DNA of 32,000 nt from Nanoarchaeum equitans Kin4-M (lineage in GTDB: Archaea; Nanobdellota; Nanobdellia; Nanobdellales; Nanoarchaeaceae), in NCBI GenBank assembly GCA_000008085.1, contig AE017199.1, positions 330,001 through 362,000 on the forward strand, given 5' to 3'. Of the stretch, positions 966-26,598 are shown in pieces; within the stretch, counting starts at the first letter, position 1; each line of letters begins with the position of its first letter. The notes beneath the pieces are model-generated. The model was not told the DNA's origin. It was given only the letters and a program-made list of their open reading frames with translations, and did not search any database. Made by a program: the position numbers and the translations under genes.

Positions 966-1703
966 ATGAAACTTATAGGTACAGGTTGGAAAAGTCCTTC
1001 TTTAATAGATGTGCACAATAAAGTTACTTTTACTCTATGGCTTTGTGGGTGTAATTTGAAATGCCCTTTTTGTCATAACTGGAAAATAGCCGAAAAAATA
1101 GGGTGTGGAGAATTAGATATAAATAGATTGTTAGACGAATTAGATAGTGCTTCTTTATTAATAGATTATTTACATGTTACTGGGGGAGAACCCTTATTGC
1201 AATGGGAACCATTATTGGAATTGTTCAAAACCTCTTACGAAAATTATAATGTGGAAAACAGTTTGAATACTAATTTTACATTAACTATCCCATTAAAGAA
1301 GCATTTGGATTCGGGTTATGTTCACCATGTTGCTACCGATCTAAAAGTGCCCCCAAATGAAATGTATGGGGTAGAAAATTGGAAAGCCTTATGGGAATCC
1401 TATTTGAAAAGCCTTTCTCTAATGAAAGAATATGATATCCCCTTAGAATTAAGAATTCCTGTTTCGAGATTCCCATGGGAAGAAAAGAAACCATACATAG
1501 ACCAAGCACTTAAAGCTTTAGGAGACGCAAACTTCTATGTAATAATAAACCCATTATTGAATTACCCAGTTGTAAATCCTAGAAACAAAGAATGGTGTGA
1601 CAAGCATTGTTCTCCTCAAAAAGAAGAATTAAATATAATAAAAGACTATTTAGAGAGCCAAGGAATAAAAGTTTATCTAAAAGGGCACAGCGAATTAATA
1701 TAG
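966..1703 (+). CDS. radical SAM activating-enzyme family protein (PflA/NrdG-like)
   Basis: 245 aa. CGCNLKCPFCHN contains the CX3CX2C radical-SAM cluster motif near the N-terminus, followed by a GGEPLL SAM-binding motif. Size and layout match organic-radical activases. Confidence 0.7.
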   Translation: MKLIGTGWKSPSLIDVHNKVTFTLWLCGCNLKCPFCHNWKIAEKIGCGELDINRLLDELDSASLLIDYLHVTGGEPLLQWEPLLELFKTSYENYNVENSLNTNFTLTIPLKKHLDSGYVHHVATDLKVPPNEMYGVENWKALWESYLKSLSLMKEYDIPLELRIPVSRFPWEEKKPYIDQALKALGDANFYVIINPLLNYPVVNPRNKEWCDKHCSPQKEELNIIKDYLESQGIKVYLKGHSELI

Positions 1704-1758
1704 CCGGGGCAGTGGGGTCGAGAACCCCGTATGCTAGACCTGGCTACACCACGGGGGC
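1703..1758 (-). tRNA. tRNA-Glu(CUC) 5' half (split tRNA gene)
   Basis: Minus strand 1758..1719 reads GCCCCCG UG GUGU AGCCAGGUCUA GCAU A CGGGG UUCUCG. That is the acceptor 5' strand, the D arm, the anticodon-stem 5' strand and loop nt 32-37 with anticodon CUC. A 16-nt GC-rich tail ACCCCACUGCCCCGGC (1718..1703) follows instead of a variable loop and T arm. A TTTTTAAA box at 1786..1779 sits exactly 20 nt before G1. Confidence 0.85.
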
Positions 1759-1766
1759 AGTGATAA

Positions 1767-1786
1767 AATTTAAACCCATTTAAAAA
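1767..1786. promoter_or_regulatory. interleaved divergent TATA boxes (mre11 / tRNA-Glu half)
   Basis: Plus-strand AATTTAAA at 1767-1774, then 20 nt, gives a start at 1795 (ATG at 1796). Minus-strand TTTTTAAA at 1786-1779, then 20 nt, gives G1 at 1758. Confidence 0.7.
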
Positions 1787-1795
1787 CATTAACTA

Positions 1796-2881
1796 ATGAT
1801 AGCTTTCATTAGCGATTTGCATTTGGGCAATATTTACGCTAATAAAAAAGAGACTGAAGAGCATAGCTATAATGCTTTGGCAAAAATCGAAGAAAAGCTA
1901 TTAGAATACCAACCAGATTTAGTTTTGGTTGGAGGGGATATATTCGATAAAAACAAAGTCTCTGGAAAAGAGATTGGGGTATTCATAGATTTTATTAATA
2001 AAATGAATAAAAACAACATCGGAGTAGTAAGTATTAGCGGTAACCACGATGGCAAATATTGGTTAAAAGAATCATTCGATCACGCTATTCCCTATATTTT
2101 ATACAAAAGCGGAATTAACCCAGAGAATGGTTATGAATATTACTCTTTTGCTGGAATTTATTTAAAAAATTCGAGGGATTGGAAAACCCTTTCAATGATA
2201 GAGGATAAATATGATATCTCTATAGTAGGGTTTTCTTTTTATACCAAAGACCGTTTACCAGAATTGTATGAGTATTTGTCTATAATTGATAGGGAAAAAA
2301 GCGATTATATTTTACTAATGCACCAATCTCTCAAAAGTTTATTACCCCAAGATCCAGCAGCGATAGATTTAACCATTGAGAATTACAAATACGCTTTATT
2401 TGGGCATATGCATATGAAGTACTATAAGGATAAAATAATAGTAACACCCCCACCATATTCTATTTCGTTAAAAGAGGCCAATACTGAAAAAGGCTTTTGG
2501 TTAATAGATAAAAAACCCGTTTTTGTTCCTATAGAGGATAGTAGGCCTTTTATTAAAATGGCTATTGATTTAGATAACCCAATAGAGATAAAGCCAAACA
2601 AAAATGCCATTTTAATTTTAGATGTCTATTATAGAGAATCTCAAATAGACAAACTAAATCTATTGAAGAAAACCTTATCGGAAAACTTTTTGTATGTTAA
2701 AATAAACCCAATATTGAAAGAGACTAGCAAAATTATTGTTAAAAAGAGTGAAAACAAGGAAGAAATATTTAAGAAATATCTAAAAGAAGATTATGATTTC
2801 TTTATGGAATTATATGAAAAATTTAGAGACATAAAAGATCCAGAAACTATTGTTCAATACCTCGAATTTTTCTATCGATGA
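1796..2881 (+). CDS. mre11: DNA double-strand break repair nuclease Mre11
   Basis: 361 aa. Calcineurin-like phosphoesterase motifs appear in Mre11 order: DLHLG, GGDIFD, GNHDG, LLMHQS, FGHMH. No rad50 is adjacent. Confidence 0.8.
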   Translation: MIAFISDLHLGNIYANKKETEEHSYNALAKIEEKLLEYQPDLVLVGGDIFDKNKVSGKEIGVFIDFINKMNKNNIGVVSISGNHDGKYWLKESFDHAIPYILYKSGINPENGYEYYSFAGIYLKNSRDWKTLSMIEDKYDISIVGFSFYTKDRLPELYEYLSIIDREKSDYILLMHQSLKSLLPQDPAAIDLTIENYKYALFGHMHMKYYKDKIIVTPPPYSISLKEANTEKGFWLIDKKPVFVPIEDSRPFIKMAIDLDNPIEIKPNKNAILILDVYYRESQIDKLNLLKKTLSENFLYVKINPILKETSKIIVKKSENKEEIFKKYLKEDYDFFMELYEKFRDIKDPETIVQYLEFFYR

Positions 2882-3830
2882 CATTTTTATTAGATTGTAA
2901 CAAAACTACTCTCGAATCTACATGTTCATCAACCAAATCGTAATCTATATATTCGCTTAATTTTTTAGCGAATTCTTTTACTTCTTCATGTGTAGGCATG
3001 TTTTTTATTGTTAGTCTTTGTCTCGAATAACCCAATAACATAAACGCTTTTACTTCAACAAAATGGGGATTATACTTTTCTATTAAAGAGGCCCAACCCT
3101 CAAAATCTGTATCATTTATACCTTTAATTAATGTTATCCTCGCTACTTTTCTTGTTTTAGCGTGCCTCATTAGTTTTAAGCTTTTATTGAACCTCTTCCA
3201 TGCATCATTTAACAATGGTTTAGATACTTGGAAAAACAATTCTTCATTTGGAGCAGTAAAAGATATATAGAATTGAGTAGGCAATGCATTTTTTTCTATT
3301 AATTTTTCTATAGTTTCATAAACTACCCCATTTGTAACTATAAATATACTCTTAAGCCAGTGCCAGCTCTTTTTTAGATACAATATAGCTTCGTCCATCC
3401 TACCATATAATAATGGTTCTCCAATTAATGAAAATGTAACATGGTTTGGCAACAACGCTTCTTCTAACATTTTTTTATCCACTTTTTCATTACCTTTAAA
3501 ACCTATTAATAGCTCTGCTCTTAGCTTTCTTAGATTTTCTAACAAATCTTTTGGATCGGGCCAATCTTCATTAAGCAAATCTATATGCCCTTTTTGAAAT
3601 TCGTGATTTGGCCTCCAACAATAGATACATCTATTAGTACACCAAAATGCTGCTAAAGATATTTGCATACATCTATGTGTGTCTATTCCATAGAATTTGT
3701 TTTTGTAGCAAAATCTTTTGTTTTTCAAAGCTTCTTTAGTCCAATGGCATATTTCTACTGCTCCAGTTTTGTAAACTCTATAACCCGCTTTTTCATACAT
3801 TTCTTTTATTTTTTCATCAACATATAACAC
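2847..3830 (-). CDS. taw1: tRNA wybutosine-pathway radical SAM enzyme Taw1/TYW1
   Basis: Radical-SAM motif CTNRCIYCWRP, preceded by a second Cys cluster (CHW..CYKNKFYGIDTHRCMQ) typical of TYW1. TTTATAAA at 3859-3852 predicts a start at 3831, immediately before GTG 3830 (VLYVDEKIKEMYEKAGY...). The 34 extra N-terminal codons of the track ORF (up to 3932) overlap the divergent gene and are not used. Confidence 0.75.
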   Translation of the reverse strand: MLYVDEKIKEMYEKAGYRVYKTGAVEICHWTKEALKNKRFCYKNKFYGIDTHRCMQISLAAFWCTNRCIYCWRPNHEFQKGHIDLLNEDWPDPKDLLENLRKLRAELLIGFKGNEKVDKKMLEEALLPNHVTFSLIGEPLLYGRMDEAILYLKKSWHWLKSIFIVTNGVVYETIEKLIEKNALPTQFYISFTAPNEELFFQVSKPLLNDAWKRFNKSLKLMRHAKTRKVARITLIKGINDTDFEGWASLIEKYNPHFVEVKAFMLLGYSRQRLTIKNMPTHEEVKEFAKKLSEYIDYDLVDEHVDSRVVLLQSNKNVIDRKIRGIEQ

Positions 3831-3832
3831 CT

Positions 3833-3859
3833 GTTTTAAATGGAGTACCCATTTATAAA
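3833..3859. promoter_or_regulatory. interleaved divergent TATA boxes (SPOUT gene / taw1)
   Basis: Plus-strand GTTTTAAA at 3833-3840 gives a start at 3861 (ATG 3862). Minus-strand TTTATAAA at 3859-3852 gives a start at 3831 (GTG 3830). Confidence 0.65.
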
Positions 3860-3861
3860 TA

Positions 3862-4560
3862 ATGCGCGTAATAGTATTCTTCGTAGAGCCTGAGAAAGTT
3901 GATAACATAGGAGCAATGGCAAGGGTTTGCAAAAACTTTAATGCAGATTTATATTTAATTAACCCAAAAGTAGATAACTACGAAAAAGCCTTTGTTGTAG
4001 CAAAGCATGCCCAAGATTTATTGCAAAAAGCGATAGAGAATAAGCTAAATAGTATAGATGAAGCAAAAGAATTAGTTGATATAAGTGTGGGCACTACAGG
4101 AAAAATAGCTAACGAATACAATGTATTAAGAAGCCCTTTAAAACCATGGGAATTAGCAGAGAGGTTTGCCAATAGCGATATAAAACTTGGTATATTTATT
4201 GGAAGAGAAAGCATAGGTTTAACTAATGAAGAGCTATCAAAAATGGATTTTATTGTTACTATTCCTGCGAATAAAGAATATCCAATACTAAATGCTACCC
4301 ATGCTACAGCAATAATTTTATATGAATTATTCAAACATTCAAAAGAAGGGCATGTTAATTTAGCTTTACCAAAAAAAGAACAAATCGATGTTTTATTAGA
4401 TTATGTGAAGAAAATAATTGATAAACTGCCTCAACCAGATTATAGAAAGGAATATTATTTTATAATAATGAGAAAACTTATTACGCAAGGCATAATAAAT
4501 AGCAGGGAAGCCAATACATTAATTGGGTTTTTTAGATCTATATATGAAAATCTCAAATGA
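3862..4560 (+). CDS. SPOUT-class RNA 2'-O-methyltransferase (SpoU/TrmH, TrmJ/LasT-like)
   Basis: 232 aa. VFFVEPEKVDNIGAMARVCKNFNADLYLINPK (SpoU motif 1), IFIGRESIGLTNEEL (motif 2), and LNATHATAIILYEL (motif 3, knot). Confidence 0.75.
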   Translation: MRVIVFFVEPEKVDNIGAMARVCKNFNADLYLINPKVDNYEKAFVVAKHAQDLLQKAIENKLNSIDEAKELVDISVGTTGKIANEYNVLRSPLKPWELAERFANSDIKLGIFIGRESIGLTNEELSKMDFIVTIPANKEYPILNATHATAIILYELFKHSKEGHVNLALPKKEQIDVLLDYVKKIIDKLPQPDYRKEYYFIIMRKLITQGIINSREANTLIGFFRSIYENLK

Positions 4561-4606
4561 AGATATTGTGTGCTTCTGAACTAATGATGAAAGGAGCAGG
4601 AACAGA
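4557..4606 (+). ncRNA. C/D box sRNA (sRNA-1)
   Basis: AUGAAGA-UAUUGUGUGCUU-CUGA-ACUA-AUGAUGA-AAGGAGCAGGAA-CAGA. This is C, a 12-nt guide, D', a 4-nt spacer, C', a 12-nt guide, and D, 50 nt in total. The C box contains the UGA stop codon (4558-4560) of the upstream gene. The C(U5>A)/D(U2>A) change is compensatory at the K-turn U:U position. Confidence 0.65.
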
Positions 4607-4614
4607 TTATTAAA
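4607..4614 (+). promoter_or_regulatory. TATA box for the 4635 gene
   Basis: TTATTAAA followed by 20 nt, then the A of ATG at 4635. The box abuts the D box of sRNA-1. Confidence 0.6.
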
Positions 4615-9390: not shown

Positions 9391-9410
9391 TTCTTTATAT
9401 ATTATTCTAT

Positions 9411-9567
9411 GGCAAGGGACCGGCGGCCGAGAGGTGTAACCTATGACTGTCCCGTCAGGGATAGGATGAATAGGTCCCACCGCGGCCGTCGACAGCCCGG
9501 CACGAGAGTCCCCGAGTGAGAAGGCTATGGCCGTCGATGAGCTCGGGTGTTAGTGTGCGGGCAACAC
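9411..9567 (+). ncRNA. two-hairpin box H/ACA guide sRNA
   Basis: GC-rich island. Hairpin 1: a 9-bp lower stem (9421-9429/9483-9491), a pocket (AGAGGUGUAA / UCCCACCG), a 5-bp upper stem (9440-44/9470-74), a K-turn (GA 9445-46 opposite the GAU bulge plus GA at 9465-69), a 7-bp stem with a GUCA loop, and ACA at 9492-94. Hairpin 2: a lower stem (9495-9503/9555-9562), a pocket (GAGAGU / UGUUAGU), an upper stem (9511-16/9542-47), an identical GAU-GA K-turn (9536-40 opposite GA 9518-19), an apical stem with a UAUG loop, and ACA at 9564-66. Both ACA boxes lie 14-16 nt from the top of the 3' pocket strand. A T5 run follows. Confidence 0.8.
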
Positions 9568-9575
9568 TTTTTAAA
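9568..9575 (+). promoter_or_regulatory. TTTTTAAA: oligo-T terminator of the H/ACA RNA doubling as the TATA box of rpl41e
   Basis: T5 immediately follows the second ACA box. The same octamer lies 20 nt before 9596, and the ATG is at 9597. Confidence 0.6.
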
Positions 9576-10183: not shown

Positions 10184-13141
10184 CTTTTTCTCTAAATATT
10201 GGTTATACAATAAATACTTTACCCCAACTTTCTTTAATTCTTCTATCGAGGCTTTCTCTATATATTGCTGCAATTGATATACGGCATAAGCTTCCTCTAC
10301 TTCATTTAATTGTTTGTCTCCAACTAATTTGGCAACCCTTCTAAAATCTTCGGGGCTATTAACATATAACCTCGCTCTTAAGCAGTAATCTCCATAAGCT
10401 TTTAGTATGGCTAATTTAGATTGCCCATCTAAATGTTTCAAAGCACACTTTACCGAATCATAATCACATAGTTTAGCTTTCTCTATACAGCTTTTAGTTA
10501 TTTCTATTTTGGCCTCTTTTGGAAGTTTGTCCCAGCAACTTACACAACAATTATCAATATTTTTAGCATGGCCTTTTATTTTGAATATCGCATCATATAA
10601 CATTTTATAAGTATCGGAAACAACATTTGTTATTTTTTCTAATAGTTTTTGTATATTTCCTATTAACCCATTAATGAAACCTATTGAATCTTTTAACAAA
10701 AGCAACGCACTAACTGCTCCCGCTCCAACAAATGGTATTGCTGCTGCTCCTGGTATTAATACACCAATGGCACACTCTAATATGGGGAAAACTATTTTAG
10801 CTAATATCATTAACAGGGAATTTACTATATATAATACGGCTAATATGTTTGCTAACATGTATGCAATATCTATTAGCGAAGGCATTTTACCATCTCTAAT
10901 ATTGGCTATCAAAGAATCTACTTCTTTTTTAGATTTGCCTAACATCGCATTTATTTGATCTATTTGTTTTTCCATATTAGAATTGCCCAAATCACATAGA
11001 TACAATAAACCGTCTAATTTGCTTACATCTATGTTTGCGAAATTTTTTAATACTCTCTCTATTTGGTCTTTGTTTTCTCCAACCACTTTGGCATAGCCAT
11101 TTTTTACTTCTAATGACAATTGGTATAAATATAATAAGTTCTTTTTACATTGCGATAATTTATTATAATCGAACCTATTTTTATAATAGTTTATCAAAAA
11201 GTTGAATAGCTTAGAACAGGATAATCGCGTTATAGATGTGTTATCCCAATATTTTACTATTAAATCAGCAACTCTAATTAGCTTGCTATCTAATGAAGGA
11301 TGTTGGTAGAAATCATACAATATGGCCATTTCATTATAAAGCTCTTCCGCTTTCTCCCTTAGCTCTGTGCTATTGTTATATTGTAATTCTTGGGCATATT
11401 GTTTATACACAGATTTTACATATTGATAAGTAAGGTTTGCGGCTTCTTTGACATAGTCCAATAACAAGTTTTTCTCTTTCGAGCTAACCAAATAAGAATA
11501 ATATAAAACTTTGTTTAACCACAAGTTTTTGTTATTGAATTCGTTTATCTCTTTATCTATTTTTTTCGCAATAAATGATATTAAAATTAAGGGATTTGCT
11601 TTATCTCTTATATCGTTTACTATATTGTTAGCGCATTTGTAAACAAATAAAAACCTATAATCGCTTGTATCAACATAAGTTACTTGTTTGTGTTTAGATA
11701 TTATCCAAATTGAGTTAAAATATACGTTACCTTTTCCAGTTTTTCCCTTAGTTCTTAAGAATTTATTACTATTGCTAATTATATATTGGTAGTTAGACCC
11801 AAACCCAAAATACCCGGCAATATCTTTATTACAACTACTTACTTTGGTGTTTAAGCTTTGAACCCACCTTTTTTTGTTTTCTACATAATTATATAAATCA
11901 TATTCATAACCTGCATATTCTTCATCGCCAGCATATACATTGTTTATATTAGAATAGCATTCTTTTAAGTTACAGTTACAATTTAAGTCTGTATTGTTAT
12001 CATTGGAAGCCCAACCATAATTACTATCATATTTGGGAGTAACTATAGTTTTAATTTTCCCTACATTGTTTATTATATCGTAAAATTCCTTCATACGGCT
12101 TTTTATATTAGAAAGATGTGATTTTAGTTGTTTTAAATCGTTCTGCGCTTTGCTAAGCAAATTAGATAGCAATAGCAATATTATTATTAATGGTGCCATC
12201 GTTGTTACATAATCTAAACAAAATCTGCTCGCTTTTATTTTAATTTTGGCTTCATACTCCAATGGGGGTAGTTCTATTTGAGAATCGAACCTATTATTAA
12301 AAACATACGATGGAACAGTTATAGACATTTTTTGATTAACATTTATTGGATTGTTAAAAGAGATAGACAATAAATTATTACCAAAATTGGATATAATAGA
12401 ACAAGCACTTCTTGCTATGCTCTCTATTATCCTATTTAATGGTATTTCAAACCGAGGAATACATACCCCACAAAGAAATGGAAAATTAAAGAATATATTG
12501 CCTATTCTATAATTGAACTCTATTCTTTTATTTATTTGGGCGTTTACATTTACATTGGAAAAACCAACATTGATCGGTTTCCCCTCTAAAGGTTTATTCT
12601 CTATTATCGATTTCTGTATTTCTTCGCCTTTCGCTTCTAATATTGTTTTGCCCCTTTCCTCTTTGGAAAAAGTTTTATAATACCTATTCCCAAATATGTT
12701 GCTATCTAAAATAAGGTTTACCCTAATGTATGGCCATTTTATTTTGTATTTTTCATTAGGGTTTACATCATTGGGAGTGCCTGTTACATAAACTATTGGT
12801 TTTAAACCTATATTTGTGTTAAAATTAATTTTGGGCTTAATATTTAGATTACATACTATGTTTATCCATGGGTTTGTTCCAATTAATGAACTATATCTTT
12901 TTTCTATTTCATTAGGCTTTGGGGGCAAAGGATAATTTAGATTAACCCTTGGATTACTATTTAAAGCGCTTTTCATTAAATTTGGGCTAACAAAATTAAT
13001 CGGTATATTAATATTTGGCTTACCAGGATTGACATTGTATAAACCAGTATATTTATATGTATTGGTTTCTATGTCTATAGATAATTGAGATACTGCTATA
13101 GGAGTAAATATTAATAGTGAGGCCAAAAAGTAATGGCGCAC
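10103..13141 (-). CDS. large (1012 aa) secreted/membrane-anchored protein, function unknown
   Basis: GTG start at 13141, exactly 20 nt downstream of ATTTTAAA (13169-13162). N-terminal signal-like MRHYFLASLLIFTPIAVSQL. An Asn/Pro-rich, beta-like N-terminal third. Internal hydrophobic segments (MAPLIIILLLLSNLL; IAYMLANILAVLYIVNSLLMILAKIVFPILECAIGVLIPGAAAIPFVGAGAVSALLLL). A Cys-rich helical C-terminus. Confidence 0.7.
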   Translation of the reverse strand: MRHYFLASLLIFTPIAVSQLSIDIETNTYKYTGLYNVNPGKPNINIPINFVSPNLMKSALNSNPRVNLNYPLPPKPNEIEKRYSSLIGTNPWINIVCNLNIKPKINFNTNIGLKPIVYVTGTPNDVNPNEKYKIKWPYIRVNLILDSNIFGNRYYKTFSKEERGKTILEAKGEEIQKSIIENKPLEGKPINVGFSNVNVNAQINKRIEFNYRIGNIFFNFPFLCGVCIPRFEIPLNRIIESIARSACSIISNFGNNLLSISFNNPINVNQKMSITVPSYVFNNRFDSQIELPPLEYEAKIKIKASRFCLDYVTTMAPLIIILLLLSNLLSKAQNDLKQLKSHLSNIKSRMKEFYDIINNVGKIKTIVTPKYDSNYGWASNDNNTDLNCNCNLKECYSNINNVYAGDEEYAGYEYDLYNYVENKKRWVQSLNTKVSSCNKDIAGYFGFGSNYQYIISNSNKFLRTKGKTGKGNVYFNSIWIISKHKQVTYVDTSDYRFLFVYKCANNIVNDIRDKANPLILISFIAKKIDKEINEFNNKNLWLNKVLYYSYLVSSKEKNLLLDYVKEAANLTYQYVKSVYKQYAQELQYNNSTELREKAEELYNEMAILYDFYQHPSLDSKLIRVADLIVKYWDNTSITRLSCSKLFNFLINYYKNRFDYNKLSQCKKNLLYLYQLSLEVKNGYAKVVGENKDQIERVLKNFANIDVSKLDGLLYLCDLGNSNMEKQIDQINAMLGKSKKEVDSLIANIRDGKMPSLIDIAYMLANILAVLYIVNSLLMILAKIVFPILECAIGVLIPGAAAIPFVGAGAVSALLLLKDSIGFINGLIGNIQKLLEKITNVVSDTYKMLYDAIFKIKGHAKNIDNCCVSCWDKLPKEAKIEITKSCIEKAKLCDYDSVKCALKHLDGQSKLAILKAYGDYCLRARLYVNSPEDFRRVAKLVGDKQLNEVEEAYAVYQLQQYIEKASIEELKKVGVKYLLYNQYLEKKLYPYAFVNGKLYIDYLPEKIKKILSS

Positions 13142-26538: not shown

Positions 26539-26598
26539 GGGCAGCCACGGGGCCCGAATTTGGTCCCCGTGACCCCGGTTCGAATCCGGGCGGGGCTA
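26539..26598 (+). tRNA. tRNA 3' half (split tRNA gene); the U72-type acceptor implies an A1:U72 tRNA (Gln or initiator Met candidate)
   Basis: GC-rich leader GGGCAGCCACGGGGCCC (26539-55), then GAAUUUGG, then U-CCCCG-UGAC-CCCGG-UUCGAAU-CCGGG-CGGGGCU-A. That gives an anticodon-stem 3' strand, a variable loop, a complete T arm, an acceptor 3' strand and discriminator A. There is no acceptor 5' strand or D arm upstream. The last 3 nt overlap the stop codon of the convergent gene, and a T-rich run follows. Confidence 0.85.

Follow-up and report, generated by a model that had tools for sequence, protein, structure and literature searches.

The 5' half gene of tRNA-Glu(CUC) in Nanoarchaeum equitans: a catalogued split tRNA locus recovered from raw sequence

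Nanoarchaeum equitans is the organism in which tRNAs built from two separately encoded halves were discovered. Its split tRNA genes were reportedly described by Randau et al. in 2005 (Nature 433:537). That landmark established that an essential adaptor RNA can be built from two transcripts. Split tRNAs also feed the debate over whether tRNA originated as a pair of half-sized minigenes, and they explain why the (alpha-beta)2 splicing endonuclease has a broad specificity. The trans-spliced species of N. equitans are tRNA-iMet, -His, -Lys, -Gln, -Glu(UUC) and -Glu(CUC), made from 11 half genes (PMC3491384, PMC3218864, PMC3655853). RNA-seq detects the precursors of all 11 halves, with defined 5' ends and a purine at the start; most end with a GC-rich stretch (PMC3491384). 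These stretches are the usual transcript end and are complementary solely to the matching half (PMC3491384). In promoters of nanoarchaeal tRNAs and tRNA halves, box A precedes the start by 26 nt, and 5' leaders are missing in N. equitans tRNAs because RNase P is absent (PMC3491384). For tRNA-Glu, Table 1 of Chan, Cozen and Lowe (2011; PMC3218864) places the CUC 5' half at 331758(-), with a precursor of ~56 nt, a mature length of 40 nt and the ligation site at 37/38. The same table gives the CUC 3' half at 487064(-), with lengths of ~56/35 nt, and the UUC 5' half at 436673(-), whose 3' half is common with Glu CUC.

Split tRNAs are also described in Crenarchaeota: tri-split tRNAs in Caldivirga maquilingensis, tRNA-Asp(GUC) in Aeropyrum pernix and Thermosphaera aggregans, and tRNA-Lys(CUU) in Staphylothermus (PMC3218864). 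They resemble the N. equitans system in having separate transcripts, a complementary zip of ~13 nt and a bulge-helix-bulge (BHB) cut by (alpha-beta)2 endonuclease, and the Asp(GUC) cases are likewise split at 37/38 (PMC3218864). The layout differs, however. The Aeropyrum and Thermosphaera halves lie within ~160 bp, whereas in N. equitans ~155 kb separates the halves of tRNA-Glu(CUC), and a single 3' half is used by two 5' halves. Cis-spliced archaeal pre-tRNAs with the canonical 37/38 intron have the splice position, endonuclease, ligase and BHB logic in common with the locus studied here. Yet here the intron is discontinuous: there are two transcripts with their own promoters, and tail and leader together amount to an intron cut in two. 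In the terrestrial nanoarchaeon Nst1, which lacks split tRNA genes and has kept RNase P (Podar et al., PMC3655853), the tRNA-Glu genes are intact, and the orthologues share ~85% nucleotide identity with those of N. equitans (PMC3655853). Because the Nst1 orthologues are intact, the split is derived in the lineage of N. equitans, and it looks specific to that lineage.

We analyzed a 32,000-nt stretch of N. equitans Kin4-M DNA, positions 330001-362000 of the genome NC_005213 (the window). The minus strand from 1758 to 1703 reads GCCCCCGTGGTGTAGCCAGGTCTAGCATACGGGGTTCTCGACCCCACTGCCCCGGC, an element of 56 nt that was read directly and extracted twice, and that divides into GCCCCCGTGGTGTAGCCAGGTCTAGCATACGGGGTTCTCG followed by ACCCCACTGCCCCGGC. 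The element and its immediate surroundings contain the following features.

1719..1758, minus strand: mature part, tRNA-Glu(CUC) 5' half, GCCCCCGUGGUGUAGCCAGGUCUAGCAUACGGGGUUCUCG, tRNA positions 1-37, 40 nt
1703..1718, minus strand: 3' extension ACCCCACUGCCCCGGC, 16 nt, 13 of them G or C
1779..1784, minus strand: box A TTTAAA, starting exactly 26 nt upstream of G1758; no 5' leader
966..1703, plus strand: convergent NrdG-type radical-SAM activase open reading frame (TIGR02495, 147 bits against a cut-off of 131)
ATG at 1796, plus strand: divergent Mre11/SbcD-like phosphoesterase, flanking the 5' half

We put the probability at about 97% that this element is the gene for the 5' half of N. equitans tRNA-Glu(CUC), trans-spliced as proposed below. 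The reading draws on two kinds of evidence. Sequence, promoter spacing, identity with the published locus and acceptor-strand complementarity were computed here; what is said of how the half is transcribed, how the precursor is cut in vitro, what the spliced product reads and where the partner lies comes from the literature.

The 40-nt part is a contiguous 5' portion of a cloverleaf (1758..1719) that ends at a known splice position. Positions 1-7 form the acceptor 5' strand GCCCCCG and are followed by U8 and G9. The D stem, GUGU/GCAU, encloses an 11-nt D loop containing GG, and A26 comes next. The 5' strand of the anticodon stem is CGGGG (27-31), and the loop runs U32 U33 C34 U35 C36 G37, so that the mature part ends with G37, directly after the anticodon CUC. 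That tRNA positions 1-37 take up 40 nt is due to extra residues in the D loop. Beyond position 37, the minus strand of the element contains no variable loop, T arm or acceptor 3' strand, just as an earlier note on this DNA had read it.

Position 1758(-) of the window corresponds to genome position 331758(-), and position, strand, both lengths and split site agree exactly with Table 1 of PMC3218864. The earlier note, made from the letters alone, had proposed a separate 5' half of tRNA-Glu(CUC) with a GC-rich tail, broken after nucleotide 37 and built like the split tRNAs of N. equitans. Its proposal agrees with the catalogued half gene in strand and to the exact base, its break is the published 37/38 ligation site (PMC3218864), and the element is one of that organism's published half genes. 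Compared with the catalogued Glu(CUC) 5' half of N. equitans, we see no difference: the lengths of 56 and 40 nt, the 37/38 site, the GC-rich extension and the leaderless start with box A at -26 are all alike.

The offset of 330000 between window and genome, on which this identity depends, is backed by five published RNAs. The relevant features of the window are these.

4552-4611, plus strand: C/D-box sRNA17, verbatim, published at 334552-334611 (PMC3491384)
7448-7505, minus strand: C/D-box sRNA18, verbatim, published at 337448-337505 (PMC3491384)
29412-29470, plus strand: C/D-box sRNA19, verbatim, published at 359412-359470 (PMC3491384)
9411-9574, plus strand: H/ACA-box sRNA, double hairpin, published at 339411-339574; the largest GC island (9406-9569)
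26559-26598, plus strand: tRNA-Gln(UUG) 3' half, mature 40 nt from U33, U33-UUG...CGGGGCUA
26539-26558, plus strand: leader of the Gln 3' half, GGGCAGCCACGGGGCCCGAA, 20 nt, GC-rich, starting at G26539
26513-26518, plus strand: box A of the Gln 3' half, at -26

sRNA16 and sRNA20, published just outside 330001-362000, are absent from the window. For Gln(UUG), the 3' half is listed at 356559(+) with a split at 32/33, and its 5' partner at 419223(-), outside the window (PMC3218864). From 26559 on the plus strand we read U33-UUG-G-U-CCCCG-UGAC-CCCGG-UUCGAAU-CCGGG-CGGGGCU-A. The presence of this half where it was predicted is independent confirmation that the table of PMC3218864 and the window are in register.

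Standard detectors recover little of this. A scan of the window at Rfam gathering thresholds reported none of sRNA17, sRNA18 and sRNA19. The HgcG/Pab40 model matched the H/ACA sRNA at 42.4 bits (E = 2e-10), well under its gathering score of 77, and a default Rfam scan therefore misses it. The Rfam tRNA model gave the Gln 3' half 18.7 bits, again under the gathering score. As for the bare Glu 5' half, neither ARAGORN nor the Rfam tRNA model called it, even with the searched stretch ending at 37/38, and Rfam truncated-match searches returned no tRNA match. This silence is expected of half a tRNA without a T arm. Base composition, on the other hand, picks the element out. The window is 31% GC, and only 0.76% of its 40-nt windows reach 60% GC or more, merging into six islands in 32 kb. 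The four large islands are the Glu 5' half, tRNA-Thr(GGU), the tRNA-Gln 3' half and the H/ACA sRNA. Split half genes such as the Glu(CUC) 5' half are thus a class that ARAGORN and the Rfam tRNA model miss, and the locus serves as a positive control for reading raw sequence, which recovered the architecture, the split position, the anticodon and the partner's acceptor strand. The Glu(CUC) 5' half is already published as one of the original eleven half genes, and the locus holds no new biology.

The lack of any detector call could also be expected of a dead tRNA-Glu fragment, unexpressed and partnerless, left over from a gene that was truncated when the DNA was rearranged or a mobile element integrated. 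Half tRNAs do arise as remnants of integration sites; the bare tRNA 3' end on viral contig L086, described below, is an example. The promoter argues against such a relic. The element has its own box A at -26 and a purine start that is also the first tRNA nucleotide, and TTTAAA lies at -26 of tRNA-Thr (start 17848) and of the Gln 3' half (start 26539) as well, so the spacing is that of the functional tRNA genes in the window. Moreover, the break falls precisely at the canonical 37/38 splice position, and what follows is a GC-rich tail that is not tRNA. Published RNA-seq and RT-PCR of the spliced tRNA, together with the reported partner locus, already refute a dead fragment (PMC3491384, PMC3218864, PMC2761253), and we consider it wildly improbable.

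Downstream of G37, the 16-nt extension is GC-rich, non-tRNA and within the 12-16 nt seen for such tails. With the 40 nt of the mature part it gives a precursor of 56 nt, matching the ~56 nt published (PMC3218864) and the ~56-nt precursor that had been predicted. At 1703, the last base of the tail lies opposite the G of the TAG stop codon (1701-1703) that ends the convergent frame 966..1703; the tail had been said to run into the stop codon of a convergent radical-SAM gene, and the two indeed overlap at base 1703. That abutment invites a different assignment, in which the island is a structured 3' end of the NrdG-type gene on the plus strand, a terminator or stabilizing hairpin, and its likeness to tRNA is accidental. 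The element does start at the G of the stop codon, and it stands out as a GC-rich island against an AT-rich genome. But the minus strand satisfies every constraint on a 5' half, including the 7-nt acceptor strand, U8, a D arm with GG and the anticodon strand; it has U33, then CUC, then a purine at 37; and it equals a published tRNA primer (PMC2761253). The isolated RNA also folds no better than shuffled sequences. A role confined to the 3' end of the NrdG-type mRNA is thus extremely unlikely, and we retain the tRNA half. The same 56 nt and promoter occur, identical, on independent metagenome or run assemblies (L001, L002, L006) that also encode an identical NrdG-type protein.

As its share of the trans-intron, the tail zips to the leader of the 3' half and is cut away by the splicing endonuclease; the complementarity rests on the literature. 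Its beginning, ACCCC (1714-1718, minus strand), is a copy of predicted tRNA positions 38-42. Since the tail thus starts like the predicted 3' exon, A-CCCC follows both splice sites. Because the tail opens with ACCCC, the 56-nt RNA can form a cis hairpin, GGGGUU-CUC-GACCCC, which mimics an anticodon arm and is present in both the minimum-energy and the centroid structures. This raises the idea that the 5' half precursor is also a small RNA in its own right. The fold as a whole has no statistical support, however (z = +0.62 against shuffles), as expected of an RNA whose structure depends on its partner; the two-fold pseudo-symmetry of a BHB can account for the repeat; and we found no support in the literature. 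An additional small-RNA function therefore has next to no probability in our estimate. As a half precursor, the RNA may simply show in its ACCCC repeat that pseudo-symmetry, with similar helices after both cut sites.

A 5' half requires a partner, and none for the tail was found in the 32-kb window with up to 3 mismatches allowed. The partner had been expected outside the window, and it is published there, at 487064(-). We take its neighbor to be NEQ547 (AlaRS-alpha), estimated near 485-487 kb. Part of the partner's sequence can be recovered from published primers. Mitchell et al. (2009; PMC2761253) amplified spliced N. equitans tRNA-Glu with two primers. Their forward RT-PCR primer, GCCCCCGTGGTGTAGCCaGGTctAGCATAC, matches the element's first 30 nt exactly (PMC2761253). 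From the reverse primer, TGCCCCCGCCGGGATTTGAACC, it follows that the tRNA ends in ...GGTTCAAATCCCGGCGGGGGCA (PMC2761253), which comprises a standard T loop, the T-stem strand CCCGG, the acceptor 3' strand CGGGGGC and discriminator A. The partner strand CGGGGGC, read from this reverse primer, pairs by Watson-Crick rules with GCCCCCG at 7/7 positions; it is the very acceptor 3' strand that had been forecast from the 5' half.

To assemble the molecule in silico, we joined the 40 nt of the 5' half, an inferred A38, CCCCG, four unspecified variable-loop bases, an inferred CCG and the 22 known bases. The product is 75 nt long, and ARAGORN calls it tRNA-Glu(ctc) whatever filler is used for the variable loop. 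With CCA it reaches 78 nt, the published mature size (PMC2761253). By the same logic, the mature 3' half is predicted to read A-CCCCG-NNNN-CCGGGUUCAAAUCCCGGCGGGGGCA, about 35 nt. Its leader would contain GCCGGGGCAGUGGG(G) and be complementary to the tail stretch CCCCACUGCCCCGGC. A leader of ~21 nt (56-35) would accommodate a zipper of 14-15 nt, a central helix of 4 nt and 2-3 bulged nt.

These data suggest the following course of assembly. From the box A promoter, an RNA of ~56 nt would be transcribed, starting at tRNA position 1 and carrying 40 nt of tRNA and the 16-nt tail. The tail would then pair with the ~21-nt leader of the separate 3' half, encoded ~155 kb away at NC_005213 487064(-); the same 3' half would also serve the Glu(UUC) 5' half at 436673(-). 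In the zipped halves, the tRNA body would fold and the junction would form a relaxed BHB. The heteromeric endonuclease NEQ205-NEQ261 would cut after G37 and before nucleotide 38, and an RNA ligase would join the exons, with CCA addition yielding the 78-nt mature tRNA. NEQ205-NEQ261 is known to cleave pre-tRNA-Glu(CUC) in vitro, and ligation yields a product whose anticodon loop is correct (PMC2761253). We infer the exact tail-leader pairing and the geometry of the bulges. On this last point the earlier note needs amendment. It had assumed a canonical 3-4-3 BHB, and the 5' side of that model is compatible with the sequence, with 32-35 in the helix, C36-G37-A in the bulge and CCCC... in the outer helix. 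One of its bulges is probably wrong, as the published junction of pre-tRNA-Glu(CUC) is a relaxed BHB in which one bulge has 3 nt and the other 4 nt (PMC2761253).

We also searched sequence collections for the 3' half, with the pattern GGGGCAGTGG N{14,34} GTTCRA N8 GGGGGC, in which the leader core is 10 nt long. The scan of a genome collection gave nine chance matches, in GC-rich bacteria, and the source genome is seemingly missing from the collections. A metagenome scan with G-U pairs allowed gave 69 matches, made up of GC-rich chance matches and intact tRNAs from archaea other than N. equitans, with no N. equitans half among them. Either the absence of the source genome from the collections or an imperfect match to the 10-nt leader core would explain why the scans failed; the T-loop and acceptor part of the pattern is borne out by the published primer. 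Scans of viral contigs for the primer-derived 3' end and for 5' halves returned nothing relevant, and a text search of the literature for the leader and tail sequences found the primers alone.

The metagenome matches include a 63-nt family of intact tRNAs at 23 loci (L017, L023, L024, L029, L038, L042, L044, L045, L047, L049, L051, L052, L058, L059, L062, L065, L067, L072, L073, L075, L077, L079 and L082). All but L017 and L023 begin GCCCCCGT-GGGGTAGTGG. The acceptor stem of the GCCCCCGT-GGGGTAGTGG family is that of N. equitans tRNA-Glu, but its members are neither split nor Glu; their anticodon regions differ, for example ...CTCCGGA... or ...CTGCGGA.... On the AT-rich viral contig L086 (IMGVR_UViG_3300025308_000337), positions 10370-10394 of the minus strand hold the last ~25 nt of a tRNA (CCGGGTTCAAATCCCGGCGGGGGCA) with no recognizable 5' part. 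This is likely a copy of an integration (att) site. Its match to the 3' end of N. equitans tRNA-Glu probably reflects the shared ancestry of archaeal tRNA 3' ends and no link to N. equitans.

Upstream of the Glu 5' half, a spacer of only 37 bp (1759-1795) separates it from the Mre11-like gene and contains two palindromic TTTAAA boxes. While the first (1779-1784) is the box A of the half gene, the second (1768-1773) lies 26 nt short of position 1794, which is two bases ahead of the ATG of the Mre11-like gene. This spacing suggests that the spacer may be a minimal bidirectional promoter pair and the Mre11-like mRNA leaderless. Taken jointly, the two minor unpublished readings of the locus, a cis anticodon-arm mimic that might provide protection or allow modification before splicing and this bidirectional promoter pair, strike us as unlikely.

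Two genes for tRNA/rRNA modification enzymes lie near the 5' half. A radical-SAM protein of wyosine formation (Taw1/TYW1-type) is encoded at 2850-3932 on the minus strand, and a SpoU-family methylase (Pfam SpoU_methylase) at 3862-4560 on the plus strand, in the position of NEQ384, which is annotated as COG0565 rRNA methylase (Randau 2012, PMC3491384). With the longest open reading frames, the two genes overlap head-to-head by ~70 bp.
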